A stretch of DNA of 64,000 nucleotides from an uncultured Erysipelotrichaceae bacterium (GTDB lineage: Bacteria > Bacillota_I > Bacilli_A > RF39 > UBA660): contig CACYFN010000002.1 in the NCBI GenBank assembly GCA_902773675.1, forward strand, positions 1,453-65,452, read 5' to 3'. The first letter of the stretch is position 1. The number at the start of each line of letters is the position of its first letter. Shown in pieces: positions 13,085 to 22,072 of the stretch. The position numbers and the translations under genes were made by a program. The notes under the pieces were generated by a model. It saw nothing but the letters and a program-made list of their open reading frames with translations. It was not told the DNA's origin and searched no databases.

Positions 13085-14017
13085 GTGACACTTTCAAAAT
13101 TAGATATTGAAAATATTGAAAAATTAATTAATATAGAAGAATTAATTCTAAATGTTTATAATGAATTAATTAATTTGGAAATAAATGATAGAAAAATGGA
13201 AATTTATGGAAAATATGATTATTTAAAAAGTTTATATTCTATTGAAAGTAATTCTTTTAAGGAATTTGATGATATAGATAAATATCAAATGATTATTGAA
13301 TATATTGATAATAATTATGATAAAAAAAATCCTATTATTCTACAGCGTATTATTAATCAATTAAATGATATATTTTTAAATTACAAACATCATTTATTAT
13401 ATAATCAAAAAAATATATCAGCTGATGCGATAGTTGAACGTGGTAATGTTATAACTTCTCAAATTAACCAATTTATTACTGACGATATAAATAGTATATT
13501 TAGATTATATTTAATTAATAATATTAAAAATACTAATAATAGTGAAATTAAGAATTCTATGATTCAATATAAGTATTTAAATATATTTTCTAATATTAAT
13601 AATAATAATGAAATATTTAATGTTAATAGTGATAATAATCAAGTTTATCTTTCATATAAGGCCTTATTTCAAGTTTTACACAATAAAAGAAATATACCTG
13701 AATTTGTTTTAAATCAAATTTTATTTGAGAGGATTAATACTATTTTAAATTCATTAATCAATGAATTACTTGATACACCTGATAATAATTTATTTGATTC
13801 ATCACAACTAGCTCAAGCATTTATTATTTCATTTTATATTCAATCTTGTTTAAATTTTGTTAATGATGAGTCAATTCTAATATTTAAGGATGATATTAAT
13901 AAAAATGCTTCAAATTCTATATCAAAAGAGATTTTATTAAATTGTGTTGATAATGTGATTAATGAGGATGAAAATAAACCTAAAATATATAGTATTAGTT
14001 TTTATGAAAAAAAATAA
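13085..14017 (+). CDS. hypothetical protein
   Basis: GTG start with the SD GGGGGAG. N/I-rich and no recognisable domain. Confidence 0.45.
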   Translation: MTLSKLDIENIEKLINIEELILNVYNELINLEINDRKMEIYGKYDYLKSLYSIESNSFKEFDDIDKYQMIIEYIDNNYDKKNPIILQRIINQLNDIFLNYKHHLLYNQKNISADAIVERGNVITSQINQFITDDINSIFRLYLINNIKNTNNSEIKNSMIQYKYLNIFSNINNNNEIFNVNSDNNQVYLSYKALFQVLHNKRNIPEFVLNQILFERINTILNSLINELLDTPDNNLFDSSQLAQAFIISFYIQSCLNFVNDESILIFKDDINKNASNSISKEILLNCVDNVINEDENKPKIYSISFYEKK

Positions 14018-15536: not shown

Positions 15537-15604
15537 AAACCACCTAATAAAATATATGATATAAAAAAAGGAAAATACAATTATTTTCCTTTTAATGTTT
15601 TTTT

Positions 15605-15754
15605 CTATATGGTGCTTAAAAATCTAATGAATGTTCCTGATATTCTACCTAGAGAAAATAATGCTTTAATTATATAAGTTATAATTGGTAATAGTAATAT
15701 AGTTAATGAACTTATTACTATTATTTTGGTTATTTTATTATGAATTAGTTGCAT
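15605..15754 (-). CDS. 49-aa hydrophobic peptide, putative bacteriocin immunity protein
   Basis: MQLIHNKITKIIVISSLTILLLPIITYIIKALFSLGRISGTFIRFLSTI. Its ATG overlaps the 3' end of bacteriocin peptide 1, and the SD is weak. Confidence 0.3.
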   Translation of the reverse strand: MQLIHNKITKIIVISSLTILLLPIITYIIKALFSLGRISGTFIRFLSTI

Positions 15755-15912
15755 ATATTTCCACTAAAGATTCTTCTTACTGATGTTCCAAGGCTTCTTC
15801 CTATTTCTAGTAATACATTACCTGCTCTTACTAATGATGATATAAATGATCCTGTTAATAGGCTTGTACCACCTTTTATTTCCATTAATTCTTCTTTATT
15901 TAATTCTTCCAT
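15745..15912 (-). CDS. class II bacteriocin precursor 1 with a double-glycine leader
   Basis: MEELNKEELMEIKGG|TSLLTGSFISSLVRAGNVLLEIGRSLGTSVRRIFSGNICN. The leader fits the LSxxELxxIxGG consensus, and the SD is a perfect AAGGAGG. Confidence 0.65.
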   Translation of the reverse strand: MEELNKEELMEIKGGTSLLTGSFISSLVRAGNVLLEIGRSLGTSVRRIFSGNICN

Positions 15913-15921
15913 AGATCCTCC

Positions 15922-16062
15922 TTAATTACATTTTAATGGTCTTACTATTCCATCTATAAAACCTACCACAAATGTTACTCCTGCTATTATAAGTAAACAA
16001 GAGCCAATACTTATTCCTCCACCTTGTATTTCTTTTAGTTCTTCTTCTTTTAGTTCTTTCAT
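15922..16062 (-). CDS. class II bacteriocin precursor 2 with a double-glycine leader
   Basis: MKELKEEELKEIQGG|GISIGSCLLIIAGVTFVVGFIDGIVRPLKCN. Its ATG overlaps the stop of the upstream accessory gene as ATGA. Confidence 0.65.
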   Translation of the reverse strand: MKELKEEELKEIQGGGISIGSCLLIIAGVTFVVGFIDGIVRPLKCN

Positions 16063-16496
16063 TGAGTCATCCCTTTCTTTATCTTTTTTATTAATTCTTT
16101 TATGAGTGTGGTTTTTCCTGTTTTAAATCTAATTTTTAAGATATTATTATTTATAAGTAATTCTTTTTCTAATTTGCAATCTACTAATAATTCATAGTAC
16201 GTATCTAATTTGTTTATTTTTATTATTTTATAATCATACTTATTATCTTCTATGTATAGTTTATAATTTTTTTTAATTGGAAATAAAGATTTATCAATTA
16301 TTATTTTTAGATTATAATCTTCTTTTATTTCGACGTATCCAATGGTATTTGTATATTTATTTATTTTAAATAGTATGCTTATTAAAATAAATACAAGAGA
16401 TAAAATACATAGTATGGTAATCCAAGAGATTATTTTTGATGGTTTTTCATTTATTAGTTTCATTTTGGAATAGTTAAAGGCATTAAGATTTTCCAT
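16059..16496 (-). CDS. single-TM accessory protein of the bacteriocin exporter
   Basis: 145 aa counted from MENLNAF, which has the SD AGGAGTG. One TM segment is followed by an extracellular beta-rich region. It is coupled both to the exporter stop and to peptide 2. Confidence 0.45.
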   Translation of the reverse strand: MENLNAFNYSKMKLINEKPSKIISWITILCILSLVFILISILFKINKYTNTIGYVEIKEDYNLKIIIDKSLFPIKKNYKLYIEDNKYDYKIIKINKLDTYYELLVDCKLEKELLINNNILKIRFKTGKTTLIKELIKKIKKGMTQ

Positions 16497-18567
16497 TTTT
16501 ATATTCACTCCTAATAATGCTTCCATCATTTATTTCAATTAGATTATCAAATAGGTCAATATTATCTAGTCTATGGGTTATAAATATTATAGTTTTAGTT
16601 TTATAATATTTAATTATATTTTTTAATATTTTTCTTTCTAAATTGATATCTATTTGATTTGTACCTTCATCTATTATTAGAATATTAAATTTTCTAAGAA
16701 GGGTTCTAGCTAATATTATTCTTTGTTTTTCTCCTCCCGAGATATTATAGCCATTTTCTTCTATCATCATATTGTATCCTAAATTACTTTTATTAATAAT
16801 TTCGTCTATAAAACAATTTTTACACACTTCTAGAAAGAATAAATTATCACTATTTTCAATATTAATATTATTAAATATACTATCTGTAAAAAGGGTTTCA
16901 TTTTGACTTAAATATAAGATATTATTTAATGATTTATCTTTATAATTATTTATATCTACTCCATCTATAAATATTTTATTCATATCTACATCATAATACC
17001 TCATAAGTAGTTTAAATAGAGTTGATTTACCAGAACCACTTTTACCAATAATAACTGTTTTGGTACCACTTTTTATTTTTAAGTTTATATTTTTTAAGAC
17101 ATTATATCTATTATCAAAGGTATATGTTAAGCTTTTAAATTCAATATCTCCTTTAATATTTTTATCAAGTATTCCTTTATCTTTATTAATGCTTATTAGT
17201 TCTAAAACTCTTTTTAATGCATTTTTGGCTTCATTTATATTGTTATCTAATTCGATAATATTTTTTATCGGCTCTAAGAAAAAACTAAGTAATGCATTAA
17301 ATGTTATTAGGCTTCCTAATGATAAGGAATTATCTATTACTTTTAATGTTCCTATAAATATAATTATGACAAATCCAATATTATTTATTAATTCTTTAAT
17401 GAAATGGATTATAAAATATGTACTTTGATAATTAAATACTTCTTTTAGGAGGTGAATGTATTTTTTTTCAAAGTTATCGTTTACTTTGTTTTCGATGTGT
17501 AATCCTTTTATGGTTTCGTATGCTTGTAAGCTTTCTACCATATAGGTACTTACATTACTTTTAGCTATTTGAACTTTATTAATTATGAATTTATATTTAT
17601 TTTTAAAGATTATAATAGTTAATACATGCATGAAAATAATTATTATACTTATTATGGTTAATGTAGAACAAATTTTATACATAAATATTAGTACAAGCAA
17701 AGTGAGTGGAAAATCAATAAAAACAGCTAAAAATAGTTTACTAATGATATCTCTTATACTTGATAGGTCATTAAATCTTGATATAACTTCTCCTGTGGTA
17801 CGATTTTTGAAATAGTGATAAGGGAGTTTAATAATTTTATGATAATTATCCACTATTAAGTTTAGATCAATTTTTTGATTGATGTAAATTAGTATTTTAT
17901 TTCTAAAATAATCTGTTATTGTTTTAAGCACATATATAGAAAAGAAAAATATAAATATTAGATATGTATTATTATGAGAATGATTATTTATTTCATCAAT
18001 CATATATTGTATATAAAAGGAATTTATTATAGAAAAGATAGTAATAAATATTGATAACATTAGTAATTGTTTTAATAAGATGTGGTGGTTTTTTATTATT
18101 TCAAATATGAATGAATAAATATTTACACTATTTTCTATAGGAAGTGGTTTTATAGGAGTTAAAAATATTAATATTTTATTAAATACTAATTTGAAGTAAT
18201 CAAATGATACTTTTTTTAGTTTGTCGGCAGGATCACCAATTATTAAATATTTATTTTTATAGTTTATTTCATAAATAACTATAAAGTGCAGATAAGAATT
18301 ATCTATAGTTATATTGGCGATACAAGGGAACAATACATTCTCATTATTTATATCATCAAATTCACATTTAACTCCTCTAGCATCAAATCCTATTTGTTTG
18401 GCAGCATTTATCAGATTATAAGCATTTGTACCCTCTTTATTTGTTTTAGTTATTTGTCTTAACTGTTCGAGATTTAGAAATCCATGGTAATACTTGATAA
18501 TCATCTGTAATGATGCTGCTCCACAATCTTTTATTCCTTCTTGTTTAATGAATGGATATTTTTTCAA
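16483..18567 (-). CDS. bacteriocin-processing ABC transporter with a peptidase C39 domain, TM domain and ATPase
   Basis: The N-terminus IKQEGIKDCGAASLQMIIKYYHG carries the C39 catalytic Cys. The C-terminus has Walker A (GKSGSGKST) and the ABC signature LSGGEKQR. The start is TTG behind the SD GAGGGGG. Confidence 0.85.
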   Translation of the reverse strand: MKKYPFIKQEGIKDCGAASLQMIIKYYHGFLNLEQLRQITKTNKEGTNAYNLINAAKQIGFDARGVKCEFDDINNENVLFPCIANITIDNSYLHFIVIYEINYKNKYLIIGDPADKLKKVSFDYFKLVFNKILIFLTPIKPLPIENSVNIYSFIFEIIKNHHILLKQLLMLSIFITIFSIINSFYIQYMIDEINNHSHNNTYLIFIFFFSIYVLKTITDYFRNKILIYINQKIDLNLIVDNYHKIIKLPYHYFKNRTTGEVISRFNDLSSIRDIISKLFLAVFIDFPLTLLVLIFMYKICSTLTIISIIIIFMHVLTIIIFKNKYKFIINKVQIAKSNVSTYMVESLQAYETIKGLHIENKVNDNFEKKYIHLLKEVFNYQSTYFIIHFIKELINNIGFVIIIFIGTLKVIDNSLSLGSLITFNALLSFFLEPIKNIIELDNNINEAKNALKRVLELISINKDKGILDKNIKGDIEFKSLTYTFDNRYNVLKNINLKIKSGTKTVIIGKSGSGKSTLFKLLMRYYDVDMNKIFIDGVDINNYKDKSLNNILYLSQNETLFTDSIFNNINIENSDNLFFLEVCKNCFIDEIINKSNLGYNMMIEENGYNISGGEKQRIILARTLLRKFNILIIDEGTNQIDINLERKILKNIIKYYKTKTIIFITHRLDNIDLFDNLIEINDGSIIRSEYKNGKS

Positions 18568-18580
18568 TTATCTCACCCCC

Positions 18581-18624
18581 TCATGTATATTATTCGACAA
18601 AACTTTTCGATTTCCTTTTTTTTT
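18581..18624 (-). promoter_or_regulatory. copy 1 of a conserved promoter/leader module, located upstream of the bacteriocin exporter
   Basis: Plus-strand sequence tcatgtatattattcgacaaaacttttcgatttccttttttttt. Read on the minus strand it runs straight into the exporter SD and its TTG start. Confidence 0.45.
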
Positions 18625-18677
18625 CTTAAAAAAATTGAAAAAAAATGAAATTTCTTTATTGAATGCAAAAAAAAAGA

Positions 18678-18932
18678 CTATTTTTCAAATAATCCTTCGC
18701 ATAATTCATCCATGGTCATATCTAACATTAGAGCTATTTTATACATTGAATAGAATGATAAATTCTTTTTGCCACCTCTACTTACGATATGTCTTAGATA
18801 TTCATAGGACATTCCTATTTCTTCTGATAGATTCATTAGATTTATATTATCTTCTTTACATTTTTTTCTAATGTTAGCTCCTACTATATTTTGAACTTCG
18901 TCTACTTTTTTTATTTCTTTTAATCCATTCAT
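18678..18932 (-). CDS. XRE-family HTH transcriptional regulator
   Basis: HTH segment LSEEIGMSYEYLRHIVSRGG. The start is set at MNGLKE (18930-18932), which has the SD GGTGG. Confidence 0.6.
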   Translation of the reverse strand: MNGLKEIKKVDEVQNIVGANIRKKCKEDNINLMNLSEEIGMSYEYLRHIVSRGGKKNLSFYSMYKIALMLDMTMDELCEGLFEK

Positions 18933-19039
18933 ATTTCCACCAAGTATATTATATAATAAACAAATTTTGGTGTCTGCAAACAATTATTTTGCATTTTTTT
19001 ATGAATATATAAATAAGTATTTAATATAATATAATAGAT

Positions 19040-20911: not shown

Positions 20912-20988
20912 GTCTCAGTAGCTCAGCTGGATAGAGCATCGCCCTTCTAAGGCGAGTGTCAGGGGTTCGAATCCCTTCTGGGACACCA
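20912..20988 (+). tRNA. tRNA-Arg, anticodon TCT
   Basis: Cloverleaf with acceptor stem GTCTCAG/CTGGGAC, anticodon loop CTTCTAA and encoded CCA. Confidence 0.85.
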
Positions 20989-21829: not shown

Positions 21830-22072
21830 ATGTATCAAAATTATAATAAGCAACAATTCTATAATCAGAAACCTAATAATAATTATCAACAATTTTATAA
21901 TCCAAATAATAATGATGATCGTTTTATTGGTGGAGGTTTTTTAGGACCATTTATTCTAGGTGGGTTAACTGGTGGTTTGGTTGCTCCATTTTTCTATGGT
22001 AATAGACCTAATTATAATTATTATTATCCATATCCTGCTACATATTATTATGGTGGAGGTTATTATCGATAA
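21830..22072 (+). CDS. Tyr/Gly/Asn-rich low-complexity small protein, possibly a spore-coat-like protein
   Basis: MYQNYNKQQFYNQKPNNNYQQFYNP...GGGYYR. Confidence 0.35.
   Translation: MYQNYNKQQFYNQKPNNNYQQFYNPNNNDDRFIGGGFLGPFILGGLTGGLVAPFFYGNRPNYNYYYPYPATYYYGGGYYR

Follow-up and report, generated by a model that had tools for sequence, protein, structure and literature searches.

A putative two-peptide bacteriocin operon in uncultured gut Bacilli, with a candidate immunity peptide related to one of its own toxin peptides

We describe here a compact locus that probably forms a self-contained class IIb-like bacteriocin operon, the putative toxin being made of two unmodified peptides; this reading is drawn from sequence comparisons. 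Export operons of the class IIb kind are already familiar. Undescribed so far are the families of the two peptides, pepA and pepB, the very small protein that would help in their export, and a putative self-protection peptide that appears to derive from a toxin peptide. The host belongs to an uncultured, spore-forming gut lineage of Bacilli, and its DNA is very AT-rich (about 24% GC). We analyzed a stretch of 64 kb (64,000 nucleotides), referred to below as the window, in which six tightly packed genes, all on the minus strand, occupy positions 15605-18932. All six had been placed at these coordinates by an earlier, sequence-only reading. In the direction of transcription, the features are:

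18948..18976, minus strand: promoter-like site ahead of the XRE gene, CAGACA and TATAAT separated by 17 nt, a consensus match only, 10/12
18678..18932, minus strand: XRE/Cro-C1-type helix-turn-helix protein, 84 aa, first gene of the same-strand array
16483..18567, minus strand: peptidase-containing ABC transporter (PCAT), 694 aa, with C39 peptidase, ABC membrane domain and ATPase
16059..16496, minus strand: single-TM accessory protein, 145 aa, encoded between the exporter and pepA genes
15922..16062, minus strand: pepA precursor, 46 aa, MKELKEEELKEIQGG, then GISIG...LKCN after GG
15745..15912, minus strand: pepB precursor, 55 aa, MEELNKEELMEIKGG, then TSLL...NICN after GG
15605..15754, minus strand: ORF3, 49 aa, overlapping the end of pepB, a candidate immunity peptide with no GG leader
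15563..15590, minus strand: intrinsic-terminator-like hairpin and U-run, AGGAAAAUA-AUUG-UAUUUUCCU, 15 nt past the ORF3 stop codon

When the window was searched in six frames with a regular expression for the GG-leader pattern, only the pepA and pepB ORFs matched; as these two adjoin the window's only C39-ABC gene, the pattern match is more than chance. Both leaders are canonical, 15 residues long, with hydrophobic residues at -4, -7, -12 and -15 that fit the consensus of TIGR01847, so that the earlier claim of two double-glycine-leader precursors holds. The public gene calls for metagenomes list the 46-aa gene and the 55-aa one; the 49-aa gene is called in two contigs. All four small genes have a dN/dS below 1, indicative of selection (0.15-0.44 for pepA, 0.12-0.33 for pepB). 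The junctions had been described as ATGA or TAATG overlaps throughout, which is correct for the accessory/pepA junction, the only ATGA overlap of the cassette; the others are a 14-nt overlap between the ABC and accessory genes, a 9-nt spacer between pepA and pepB (TAAGGAGGATCTATG) with a GGAGG ribosome-binding site 4 nt before the pepB ATG, and a 10-nt overlap between pepB and ORF3. The first overlap would grow to 47 nt, and the accessory protein to 156 aa, if an upstream ATG at 16529 were used; relatives and most metagenome gene calls favour the 145-aa form.

At the downstream end, the terminator-like hairpin has a folding energy of -11.2 kcal/mol (RNA fold; z = -2.8 against 200 shuffles) and was missed by a consensus scan because its stem contains only two G-C pairs. 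At the upstream end, the promoter-like site is weak evidence, since such sites are not in excess region-wide (40, against 38.9 expected from shuffled sequence). The XRE gene, whose ATG is preceded by GGTGGAAAT and whose mechanical ORF runs on to a TTG at 18983, encodes a protein that matches Pfam HTH_26 with 22.4 bits (cutoff 22; E 1.5e-4). A near-identical 83-aa gene occupies the same place in locus L027; no XRE gene was found upstream of the ABC gene in L007-L013, and it is absent from the seven full sister-clade cassettes. The regulator reported upstream of the operon is therefore there, as an 84-aa helix-turn-helix gene, but it is confined to the window's own lineage and is no defining part of the cassette. 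From its position, it may control the operon in that lineage.

The peptidase-C39 ABC transporter named in the sequence-only reading is genuine. It starts with TTG, preceded by GAGGGGGTGAG, and has the full PCAT architecture: an N-terminal C39 cysteine peptidase (Peptidase_C39, 2.4e-29), then a six-helix ABC membrane domain (ABC_membrane, 7.3e-38) and an ATPase (ABC_tran, 3.1e-26). Its closest solved chains are PCAT1 (4ry2, E 5.8e-112) and then ComA (8hf7, E 3.7e-103), and its catalytic Cys (KDCGAAS) and His (LHFIVIY) are retained and align with those of PCAT1. Against NCBIfam TIGR01193 it scores 441 bits, under the trusted cutoff of 524. By analogy with PCAT1 and ComA, the C39 domain would bind the 15-residue double-glycine leaders of the pepA and pepB precursors and cut after GG, and the transporter would export the two mature peptides.

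Mature pepA would be a hydrophobic peptide of 31 residues (GISIGSCLLIIAGVTFVVGFIDGIVRPLKCN) with a net charge of +1, in which residues 1-5 and 19-23 form GxxxG motifs, and mature pepB a cationic, amphipathic peptide of 40 residues (TSLLTGSFISSLVRAGNVLLEIGRSLGTSVRRIFSGNICN) with a net charge of +3 and one such motif, GRSLG. The precursor of pepA matches nearly the whole of TIGR03949, the class IIb model for lactobin A/cerein 7B, with 29.9 bits (cutoff 21.5), about half of this score being derived from the leader (the pepB leader alone gives 16.7 bits); its relatives score 17 to 31 bits, five of the ten tested exceeding the cutoff. The family comprises 116 representatives at 50% identity with a common motif, G.IDG..RP..C[NR], which is not known to us from either lactobin A or cerein 7B. 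In pepB, it is only the leader that curated models recognise (TIGR01847, 15.8 bits, cutoff 15.7; PF10439, 16.7 bits, cutoff 27.1), and beyond the leader we found no curated bacteriocin family for it in Pfam or NCBIfam; its own family has 248 proteins, some of them named 'bacteriocin' by NCBI. Neither peptide reaches the cutoffs of the Bacteriocin_IIc and lactococcin G families. Among the affiliations suggested at the outset (class IIb, lactococcin G-like, Bacteriocin_IIc), the class IIb model TIGR03949 is thus the one whose cutoff is exceeded, by pepA. We found no characterised relative of either peptide, nor their motif strings in the literature.

The order ABC-accessory-pepA-pepB recurs in metagenome genomes of gut Bacilli at differing chromosomal sites, and pepA lies next to pepB, in the same order, in 15/15 distinct loci read, which belong to several lineages. 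In the sister clade, one flank of the cassette is a gene for a membrane protein of 259-265 aa and the other is made up of rpsU/yqeY-like genes (L008-L011, L013); in L007, the cassette stands upstream of rpsU. Locus L012 is without both ORF3 and the accessory gene. Nearly all members of both peptide families have GxxxG motifs and one near-terminal cysteine: a single Cys stands 1-2 residues from the C-terminus in 91 of the 108 pepA representatives with a recognisable leader end, and 120/120 pepB proteins among those listed have exactly one, followed by two residues in 111. Class IIb bacteriocins are defined by GxxxG motifs and by an adjacent pair of precursor genes, in one operon with a transporter and an accessory gene (PMC2850506). 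The earlier suggestion of a two-peptide bacteriocin, or of partners in a C-terminal disulfide, fits the invariable co-occurrence of the peptides and their conserved C-terminal cysteines. Outside the cell, the two may act jointly on the target membrane, pairing through their GxxxG motifs. A disulfide between the two cysteines is conceivable; against it counts that in gut anaerobes extracellular disulfide formation is not assured.

It could be argued that each peptide is a one-peptide (class IId) bacteriocin of its own, the two sharing an exporter but no synergy. Loci with several bacteriocins and one common PCAT, such as blp and pln, are frequent, and pepA and pepB resemble each other in the leader only. 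Nevertheless, their adjacency and order are constant across divergent lineages, one conserved cysteine at the same distance from each C-terminus is hard to explain for independent peptides, and the two complement each other in physicochemical character, pepA being hydrophobic and pepB cationic and amphipathic; we consider such independence unlikely.

We regard as similarly improbable that the peptides are secreted pheromones rather than toxins, sensed by the XRE protein or by an unlinked sensor, as for ComC/ComAB and BlpC in streptococci. PCATs do export signalling GG peptides, ComA being the second-best solved match of the exporter; in the window, the operon adjoins a regulator gene, several cassettes have no immunity candidate, and pepA weakly matches the ComC, BlpC and EntF induction-factor models. 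These matches, however, involve the leader only and lie far under the cutoffs, the XRE protein is a bare 84-aa, lineage-specific HTH, and no histidine kinase, response regulator or Rgg/PlcR-type receptor was found in or beside any cassette read. Moreover, mature peptides of 31 and 40 residues with one TM-length hydrophobic helix, GxxxG motifs in both and constant pairing are as expected for class IIb toxins and atypical of known pheromones.

The bacteriocin reading also includes a role for ORF3. From its Lys-rich N-terminus, this peptide continues through a single TM helix into an amphipathic C-terminal segment (LGRISGTFIRFLSTI). We think it highly improbable that it is no gene at all, merely a frame open by chance over the 3' end of pepB in very AT-rich DNA. 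It is short, it overlaps pepB, most metagenome callers skip it (26 database proteins against 248 for pepB), and its dN/dS outside the overlap (0.22-0.67) exceeds that of pepA and pepB. Yet this ratio is below 1 in seven of seven comparisons, and the frame starts in a context (GTGGAAATATATG) similar to that of the XRE gene. Altogether 10 distinct loci preserve both the open frame and a motif, AGRIxGTxIR, even where the ABC protein is only 53-55% identical; 5 positions are invariant and another 6 nearly so. In addition, alignment of the pepB and ORF3 profiles with hhalign revealed a significant, colinear homology (probability 91%, E 9.1e-7, score 33.4) that none of 100 column shuffles matched (mean 9.0, maximum 16.3). 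It covers the C-terminal half of mature pepB, including the GxxxG segment, and larger profiles gave a probability of 86% and E 5.4e-6, with the C-terminal Cys included; no similarity to pepA was detected. The sequence-only reading was right about a 49-aa TM peptide overlapping the last bacteriocin gene, which is a real, conserved gene whose size and predicted topology match proven class IIb immunity proteins. It had missed that ORF3 is, judging by these profiles, a leaderless, membrane-anchored paralogue of mature pepB.

As a diverged copy of pepB in which the leader has given way to a positive-inside N-terminus followed by a TM helix, ORF3 would stay in the producer's membrane with its pepB-like segment outside. 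It might protect the producer, most simply by filling the pepB-binding site on pepA or on a receptor. The picture of a complete locus with immunity is not general, since ORF3 is absent from five loci of other lineages (L012, L020, L021, L023, L025); these genomes would either encode immunity at another site or make peptides that are harmless to their producer.

Another reading has the peptides act for their producer, for example as membrane-active factors in sporulation, cannibalism or cell-envelope physiology. ORF3 would then be a membrane subunit retained in the same complex, and the GxxxG segment and Cys that it has in common with pepB might allow it to join pepA in the membrane of the producer. 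Some cassettes have no immunity gene, the cassette neighbours sporulation genes in the window (SpoIIIAH, GerE, GerM, polysaccharide deacetylase), in L020/L021 the opposite strand carries a Peptidase_S55 (SpoIVB-type) gene close by, and the gene downstream in L012 may, judging by its N-terminus, encode the germination protease Gpr. However, sporulation genes are numerous in spore-formers anyway, and the link to them is inconsistent because the chromosomal site varies by lineage, the sister clade having rpsU/yqeY-like genes there. We found no precedent for such a system and hold this explanation to be quite unlikely.

In the bacteriocin operon that we favour, the accessory protein would be a minimal adaptor of the transporter, as its fold and gene position suggest: its gene is translationally coupled to both neighbours. 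In the model, a short helix at the N-terminus is followed by the single TM helix and then by a beta-barrel, and the chain closes with another helix at the C-terminus, the TM-plus-barrel prediction being confident. Its best structural matches are membrane-fusion proteins, with only moderate scores, and there is no match to the Pfam HlyD domain. On this model, the protein resembles a minimal membrane-fusion-protein adaptor, a point absent from the sequence-only reading, and it would correspond to the HlyD-type accessory proteins, of roughly 450 aa, that serve other class II systems.

Compared with known systems, the exporter aligns full length (residues 2-687) with PCAT1 of Clostridium thermocellum (4ry2) and ComA of Streptococcus (8hf7), and keeps the catalytic Cys/His, Walker A, signature motif and Walker B. 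Its coupling to an adaptor-like protein of 145 aa sets it apart from both: PCAT1 has, to our knowledge, no accessory protein, and the partner of ComA is ComB, of roughly 450 aa. Relative to the HlyD family (LcnD, ComB, MacA, EmrA), the accessory protein is one third the size and its model is without coiled-coil hairpin and lipoyl domain. Two Mycoplasma families are also related. Seven of eight accessory proteins match NF045999 (MAG1140 family) end to end (best E 1.7e-6), and the exporter matches NF045998 (Mbov_0121 family peptidase-domain ABC transporter) full length; with scores of 21 (curated cutoff 35) and 294 bits (cutoff 500), respectively, they are distant relatives, not members. Some pepA relatives weakly match the Mycoplasma MPN313 family. 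These matches suggest that Mollicutes may share the same two-gene module of exporter and accessory protein; we found no function for the two families in the literature, where two papers mention Mbov_0121, in lists only.

The lactococcin G operon (lagA/lagB-lagC-lagD-lagE; PMC2850506) likewise combines two adjacent precursor genes, whose leaders are of the double-glycine type and 15 residues long, with genes for a C39-ABC transporter, an accessory protein and a small membrane protein; GxxxG occurs in both peptides, one of which is cationic and amphipathic. It differs in that the locus in the window has the transporter first, an accessory protein of 145 aa instead of about 450 aa, and one conserved C-terminal Cys in each predicted peptide; with 15 bits against a cutoff of 37, pepA and pepB are not members of the lactococcin G alpha/beta families. 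The host, from uncultured spore-forming gut Bacilli of about 24% GC, also sets the locus apart from the class IIb systems of lactic acid bacteria.

We know of no reported homology of immunity proteins of the CbnZ, BrcI, EnkIaz and AbpIM type to their own bacteriocin peptides. These class IIb immunity proteins are small and single-TM: CbnZ 42 aa (N-in/C-out), BrcI 53 aa, EnkIaz 52 aa and AbpIM 55 aa (PMC6957408). ORF3 is likewise small (49-57 aa), with one TM helix and an N-in/C-out orientation predicted from its Lys-rich N-terminus, and its gene directly follows the second bacteriocin gene. ORF3, a putative immunity peptide, does show such homology, to mature pepB of its own operon.

The array at window positions 15563 to 18976 is a genuine operon for the export of double-glycine (GG) leader peptides and, judged from its sequence, most likely encodes a class IIb-like two-peptide bacteriocin system. 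Its genes all lie on the minus strand and are listed here in the direction of transcription.

Features of the locus (window coordinates)
15563-18976 (-): tightly packed six-ORF array, including flanking signals
18678-18932 (-): XRE-type HTH protein, 84 aa
16483-18567 (-): ABC transporter, 694 aa
16059-16496 (-): accessory protein, 145 aa, with one hydrophobic helix
15922-16062 (-): pepA, GG-leader precursor, 46 aa
15745-15912 (-): pepB, GG-leader precursor, 55 aa
15605-15754 (-): ORF3, 49 aa

The sequence-only reading had the genes coupled throughout by ATGA or TAATG overlaps. The tight coupling is real, but an ATGA is found at the accessory/pepA junction only: the ABC and accessory genes overlap by 14 nt, pepA and pepB are 9 nt apart (TAAGGAGGATCTATG), and ORF3, the transmembrane (TM) peptide said to overlap the last bacteriocin gene, indeed does so, by 10 nt. 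RNA folding places a hairpin followed by a U-run (-11.2 kcal/mol, z -2.8) 15 nt past the ORF3 stop codon; it came from folding and not from the consensus terminator scan, which returned 0 terminators in this AT-rich DNA. Consensus scanning for promoters was equally uninformative in such DNA (40 promoter-like sites against 38.9 expected) and gave no convincing internal promoter in the operon. Base composition shows no sign of recent transfer (GC about 21-22% for the locus versus about 24% for the window), and the neighbors are ordinary chromosomal genes: SpoIIIAH, GerE, GerM, polysaccharide deacetylase, histidine phosphatase and DNA ligase.

Four other features of the window were recorded in passing. 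A tRNA gene (20912-20985, +) directly follows the GerM-like gene, and a T-box leader (113 bits; 1559-1742, -) lies upstream of a 353-aa ORF at 482-1543. A 310-aa Asn/Ile-rich ORF without Pfam family (13085-14017, +) is conserved beside the gene for DNA ligase in every contig of the same species. Finally, an 80-aa ORF (21830-22072, +) consists almost entirely of Asn, Tyr, Gly, Gln and Pro (MYQNYNKQQFYNQKPNNNYQQFYNPNNNDD...GGGYYR) around a Gly-rich hydrophobic center; it has no Pfam match, but gene calls on several metagenome contigs include it, and it may encode a low-complexity membrane protein or one resembling spore-coat proteins.

The transporter bears out the proposed C39-ABC exporter. Its Pfam domains follow the expected order, with PF03412 Peptidase_C39 at residues 3-138 (2.4e-29), PF00664 ABC_membrane at 169-433 (7.3e-38) and PF00005 ABC_tran at 491-637 (3.1e-26). 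The peptidase domain is not of the degenerate C39-like kind, since the catalytic Cys is kept (KDCGAAS, aligned with TDCGAAC of PCAT1), as is the catalytic His (LHFIVIY, aligned with AHFVVIY). The nearest solved structures are PCAT1 (4ry2, E 5.8e-112) and ComA (8hf7, E 3.7e-103); both alignments span residues 2-687. TIGR01193, the model for peptide cleavage/export ABC transporters, is still the top-scoring one; its 441.1 bits fall short of the 523.85-bit cutoff, which suggests a divergent subfamily of the peptidase-containing ABC transporters (PCATs), the exporters of bacteriocins and competence peptides. By its sequence, then, the protein is a divergent but intact PCAT.

Both precursors carry leaders of the kind that such a peptidase would process, as had been claimed: each has 15 residues, ends in GG and is hydrophobic at -4, -7, -12 and -15. 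On the leader model TIGR01847 they score 16.5 (pepA) and 15.8 bits (pepB), above the 15.7-bit cutoff. In length both fall within the 15-30 residues given for class IIb double-glycine leaders (PMC2850506). They are also the sole matches to a GG-leader regular expression in the six frames of the 64-kb window. The mature peptides are chemically distinct. Mature pepA (GISIGSCLLIIAGVTFVVGFIDGIVRPLKCN) is hydrophobic (GRAVY 1.49, net charge +1) and holds two GxxxG motifs, GISIG and GFIDG; mature pepB (TSLLTGSFISSLVRAGNVLLEIGRSLGTSVRRIFSGNICN) is amphipathic, with a net charge of +3, and has one GxxxG helix-helix motif (GRSLG) in addition to SxxxS-type motifs. A GxxxG-type motif is present in 107 of 108 pepA and 120 of 120 pepB family members. 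Paralogy of the two peptides beyond the leader was considered and rejected, as hhalign pairs columns 1-20 only.

Comparison with named families, which the sequence-only reading had proposed, succeeded in part. pepA, at 29.9 bits along model positions 2-44 of 45, passes the 21.5-bit cutoff of TIGR03949, the lactobin A/cerein 7B family of class IIb; membership is borderline because its relatives straddle the cutoff, five of ten lying above it and five below. pepB reaches 16.7 bits on the same model, through its leader only, and its match to curated models is in general confined to the leader. Both peptides fall short of PF10439 Bacteriocin_IIc (pepA 18.8 and pepB 16.7 bits; cutoff 27.1) and of the lactococcin G-alpha/enterocin 1071A and G-beta/1071B families (NF038035 and NF038034; cutoff 37), on which pepA scores 15.3 and 15.5 bits, its best relative 24.1 bits, and pepB has no match.

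Related loci exist elsewhere. Fifteen contigs from gut metagenomes encode an identical ABC protein in an unchanged gene order. Scanning species-representative genomes yielded eight loci from uncultured Bacilli or Erysipelotrichaceae of rabbit, goat and rumen; seven are full-length and encode an ABC protein of 53-55% identity, while the eighth (L015) ends at a contig edge. The order ABC-accessory-pepA-pepB-ORF3 is found in seven of these eight loci, at a chromosomal site unlike that of the window: five cassettes (L008-L011 and L013) have the gene of a 259-265-aa membrane protein on one side and rpsU/yqeY-like genes on the other, and two (L007 and L015) are upstream of rpsU. Three loci of more divergent lineages, reached through pepA representatives (L020-L022), have ABC-accessory-pepA-pepB, and on four short contigs (L019, L023-L025) at least the pepA-pepB pair is visible. 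Altogether, pepA is followed immediately by pepB in 15 of 15 distinct loci read. On one of the short contigs (L019, 112-420), a public gene call of 102 aa, P0321, merges the two genes through an intervening TAG, where table 11 gives two precursors; folded alone, P0321 shows two helices without reliable packing (pLDDT 57).

The pepA family, of at least 116 clusters at 50% identity, has the common motif G.IDG..RP..C[NR], and a few of the 248 proteins of the pepB family are labeled 'bacteriocin' by NCBI. Exactly one Cys, 1-2 residues from the C-terminus, is found in 91 of 108 pepA representatives, and exactly one in all 120 pepB proteins listed, followed in 111 by two residues. More than one Cys is present in only 10 of the 108 pepA representatives; the window's pepA (15922-16062, -) has a second at mature residue 7 (GSCLL), shared with its close relative L027 and not with L026 or the sister clade. 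Between close loci, dN/dS (NG86) ranges over 0.15-0.44 for pepA, 0.12-0.33 for pepB, 0.36-0.48 for the accessory gene and 0.22-0.67 for ORF3. The invariant pairing, the complementary chemistry and the matching single cysteines argue that pepA and pepB function jointly, and together also make an inter-chain disulfide between them plausible. Full-text searches found no paper with motif strings of these families (RPLKCN and others) and nothing relevant on two-peptide bacteriocins with an intermolecular disulfide; a tblastn search of 72,556 plasmids with the accessory protein and pepA gave no match.

ORF3 is mostly missed by gene callers (26 database proteins), but 10 distinct loci keep it as an open frame, among them relatives with an ABC protein only 53-55% identical, and its core motif AGRIxGTxIR is kept across loci. 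Profile-profile comparison shows homology between it and the last 27-32 residues of mature pepB: with small profiles the probability is 91%, E 9.1e-7 and the score 33.4, against a mean of 9.0 (sd 2.1, maximum 16.3) in 100 column-shuffled controls, and with larger profiles the probability is 86% and E 5.4e-6. The alignment is colinear. In ORF3 forms of 55-58 aa it also covers the Cys two residues short of the end; that tail is gone from the 49-aa form in the window. Kinship with pepA was rejected for want of similarity (E 0.43). Because the GG leader of pepB is replaced in ORF3 by a Lys-rich N-terminus followed by a TM helix (hydropathy 2.61 over 19 residues), the most fitting reading of ORF3 is a pepB duplicate that has ceased to be exported. 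It would sit in the membrane N-in/C-out, with a pepB-like amphipathic GxxxG segment displayed on the outer face.

In position, size and predicted topology ORF3 fits a class IIb immunity protein, although it is absent from five loci in other lineages (L012, L020, L021, L023 and L025). Proven class IIb immunity proteins can be equally small and of the same topology: CbnZ has 42 aa, BrcI 53, EnkIaz 52 and AbpIM 55 (PMC6957408). An immunity role is a reasonable proposal, of which a decoy is the simplest version: the membrane-tethered peptide, with its GxxxG segment and, in most lineages, its Cys, would capture pepA or block the receptor.

The accessory protein belongs to a family of 407 with no precomputed Pfam domain in any member, and all members that carry a source name are 'hypothetical'. 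It matches no Pfam family itself, and 50 family members gave no match to HlyD, Biotin_lipoyl or related Pfam families at E<=1. In an AF2 model built with 50 homologues (pLDDT 80.5), a first helix at the N-terminus is followed by a TM helix (residues 20-42), a beta-barrel and, at the C-terminus, another helix. With moderate confidence we take the protein to be related or analogous, in minimal form, to the accessory proteins of HlyD type that serve class II bacteriocin exporters. Seven of eight relatives match the Mycoplasma MAG1140 family (NF045999) end-to-end at sub-threshold scores (best E 1.7e-6), and the window protein, at 21.5 bits, stays below the 35-bit cutoff, which indicates a distant relationship only. 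In a rumen Erysipelotrichaceae locus (L012, 5983-8450) only ABC-pepA-pepB is found, the accessory gene and ORF3 both being missing, a joint absence that hints that these two may act together. In L027 (5042-5480) the accessory gene lies in two fragments of 78 aa and 47 aa that do not share a frame, through either an assembly error or a frameshift that made it a pseudogene; its neighbors, the ABC gene, pepA, pepB and ORF3, are all intact.

Independent weak links to Mycoplasma-specific NCBIfam families number three: the ABC protein to Mbov_0121 (294 bits, under the cutoff of 500), the accessory protein to MAG1140 (the two genes spanning window 16059-18567), and three relatives of pepA (P0295, P0321 and P0343) to MPN313. 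Together these links point to an uncharacterised module for peptide export in Mollicutes that is homologous to this one; a literature search on MAG1140 and Mbov_0121 found nothing relevant.

The XRE-type gene, proposed as an upstream regulator, is present in the window's own lineage. Its HTH domain is marginally above the Pfam cutoff for PF13443 HTH_26 (22.4 bits versus 22) and below that for PF01381 HTH_3 (15.6 bits; cutoff 23). The gene and its flanking genes are conserved in L027, and it is absent from sister-clade cassettes. In the window's lineage it may regulate the operon. A repeat search for operator-like sequences near it returned A/T-run matches only.

These elements can be combined into one scheme, which as a whole we consider rather unlikely. 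The near-invariant single C-terminal cysteines would join pepA to pepB as a covalent heterodimer, producer immunity would come from ORF3 as a tethered pepB decoy, and the transporter would be served by a stripped-down, membrane-fusion-like 145-aa adaptor with distant kin in Mycoplasma (Mbov_0121/MAG1140). Were it true, a PCAT module would be common to wall-less and walled low-GC Bacilli. Class IIb bacteriocins are described as non-covalent pairs, and we know of no covalent peptide-peptide link among them. If the bacteriocin reading alone is true, the operon represents an uncharacterised and fairly large family (at least 116 pepA clusters at 50% identity, 248 pepB and 407 accessory proteins). 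Its hosts, in the loci read and the organism-named records, are all uncultured, very AT-rich gut or rumen Bacilli, and almost nothing is known of competition among such bacteria.

Measured against the class IIb scheme of a published review (PMC2850506), the locus has adjacent precursor genes, GG leaders, GxxxG motifs in both peptides, and a transporter and accessory gene in the same operon, but its accessory protein is atypically small. If our reading is right, it adds three twists to that scheme, which set it apart: paired C-terminal cysteines, a candidate immunity peptide that derives from a duplicated toxin and has a membrane anchor for a leader, and a minimal adaptor distantly related to Mycoplasma proteins. 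The overall view of how GG-leader peptides are exported does not change; the locus is a useful new example, not a new principle.
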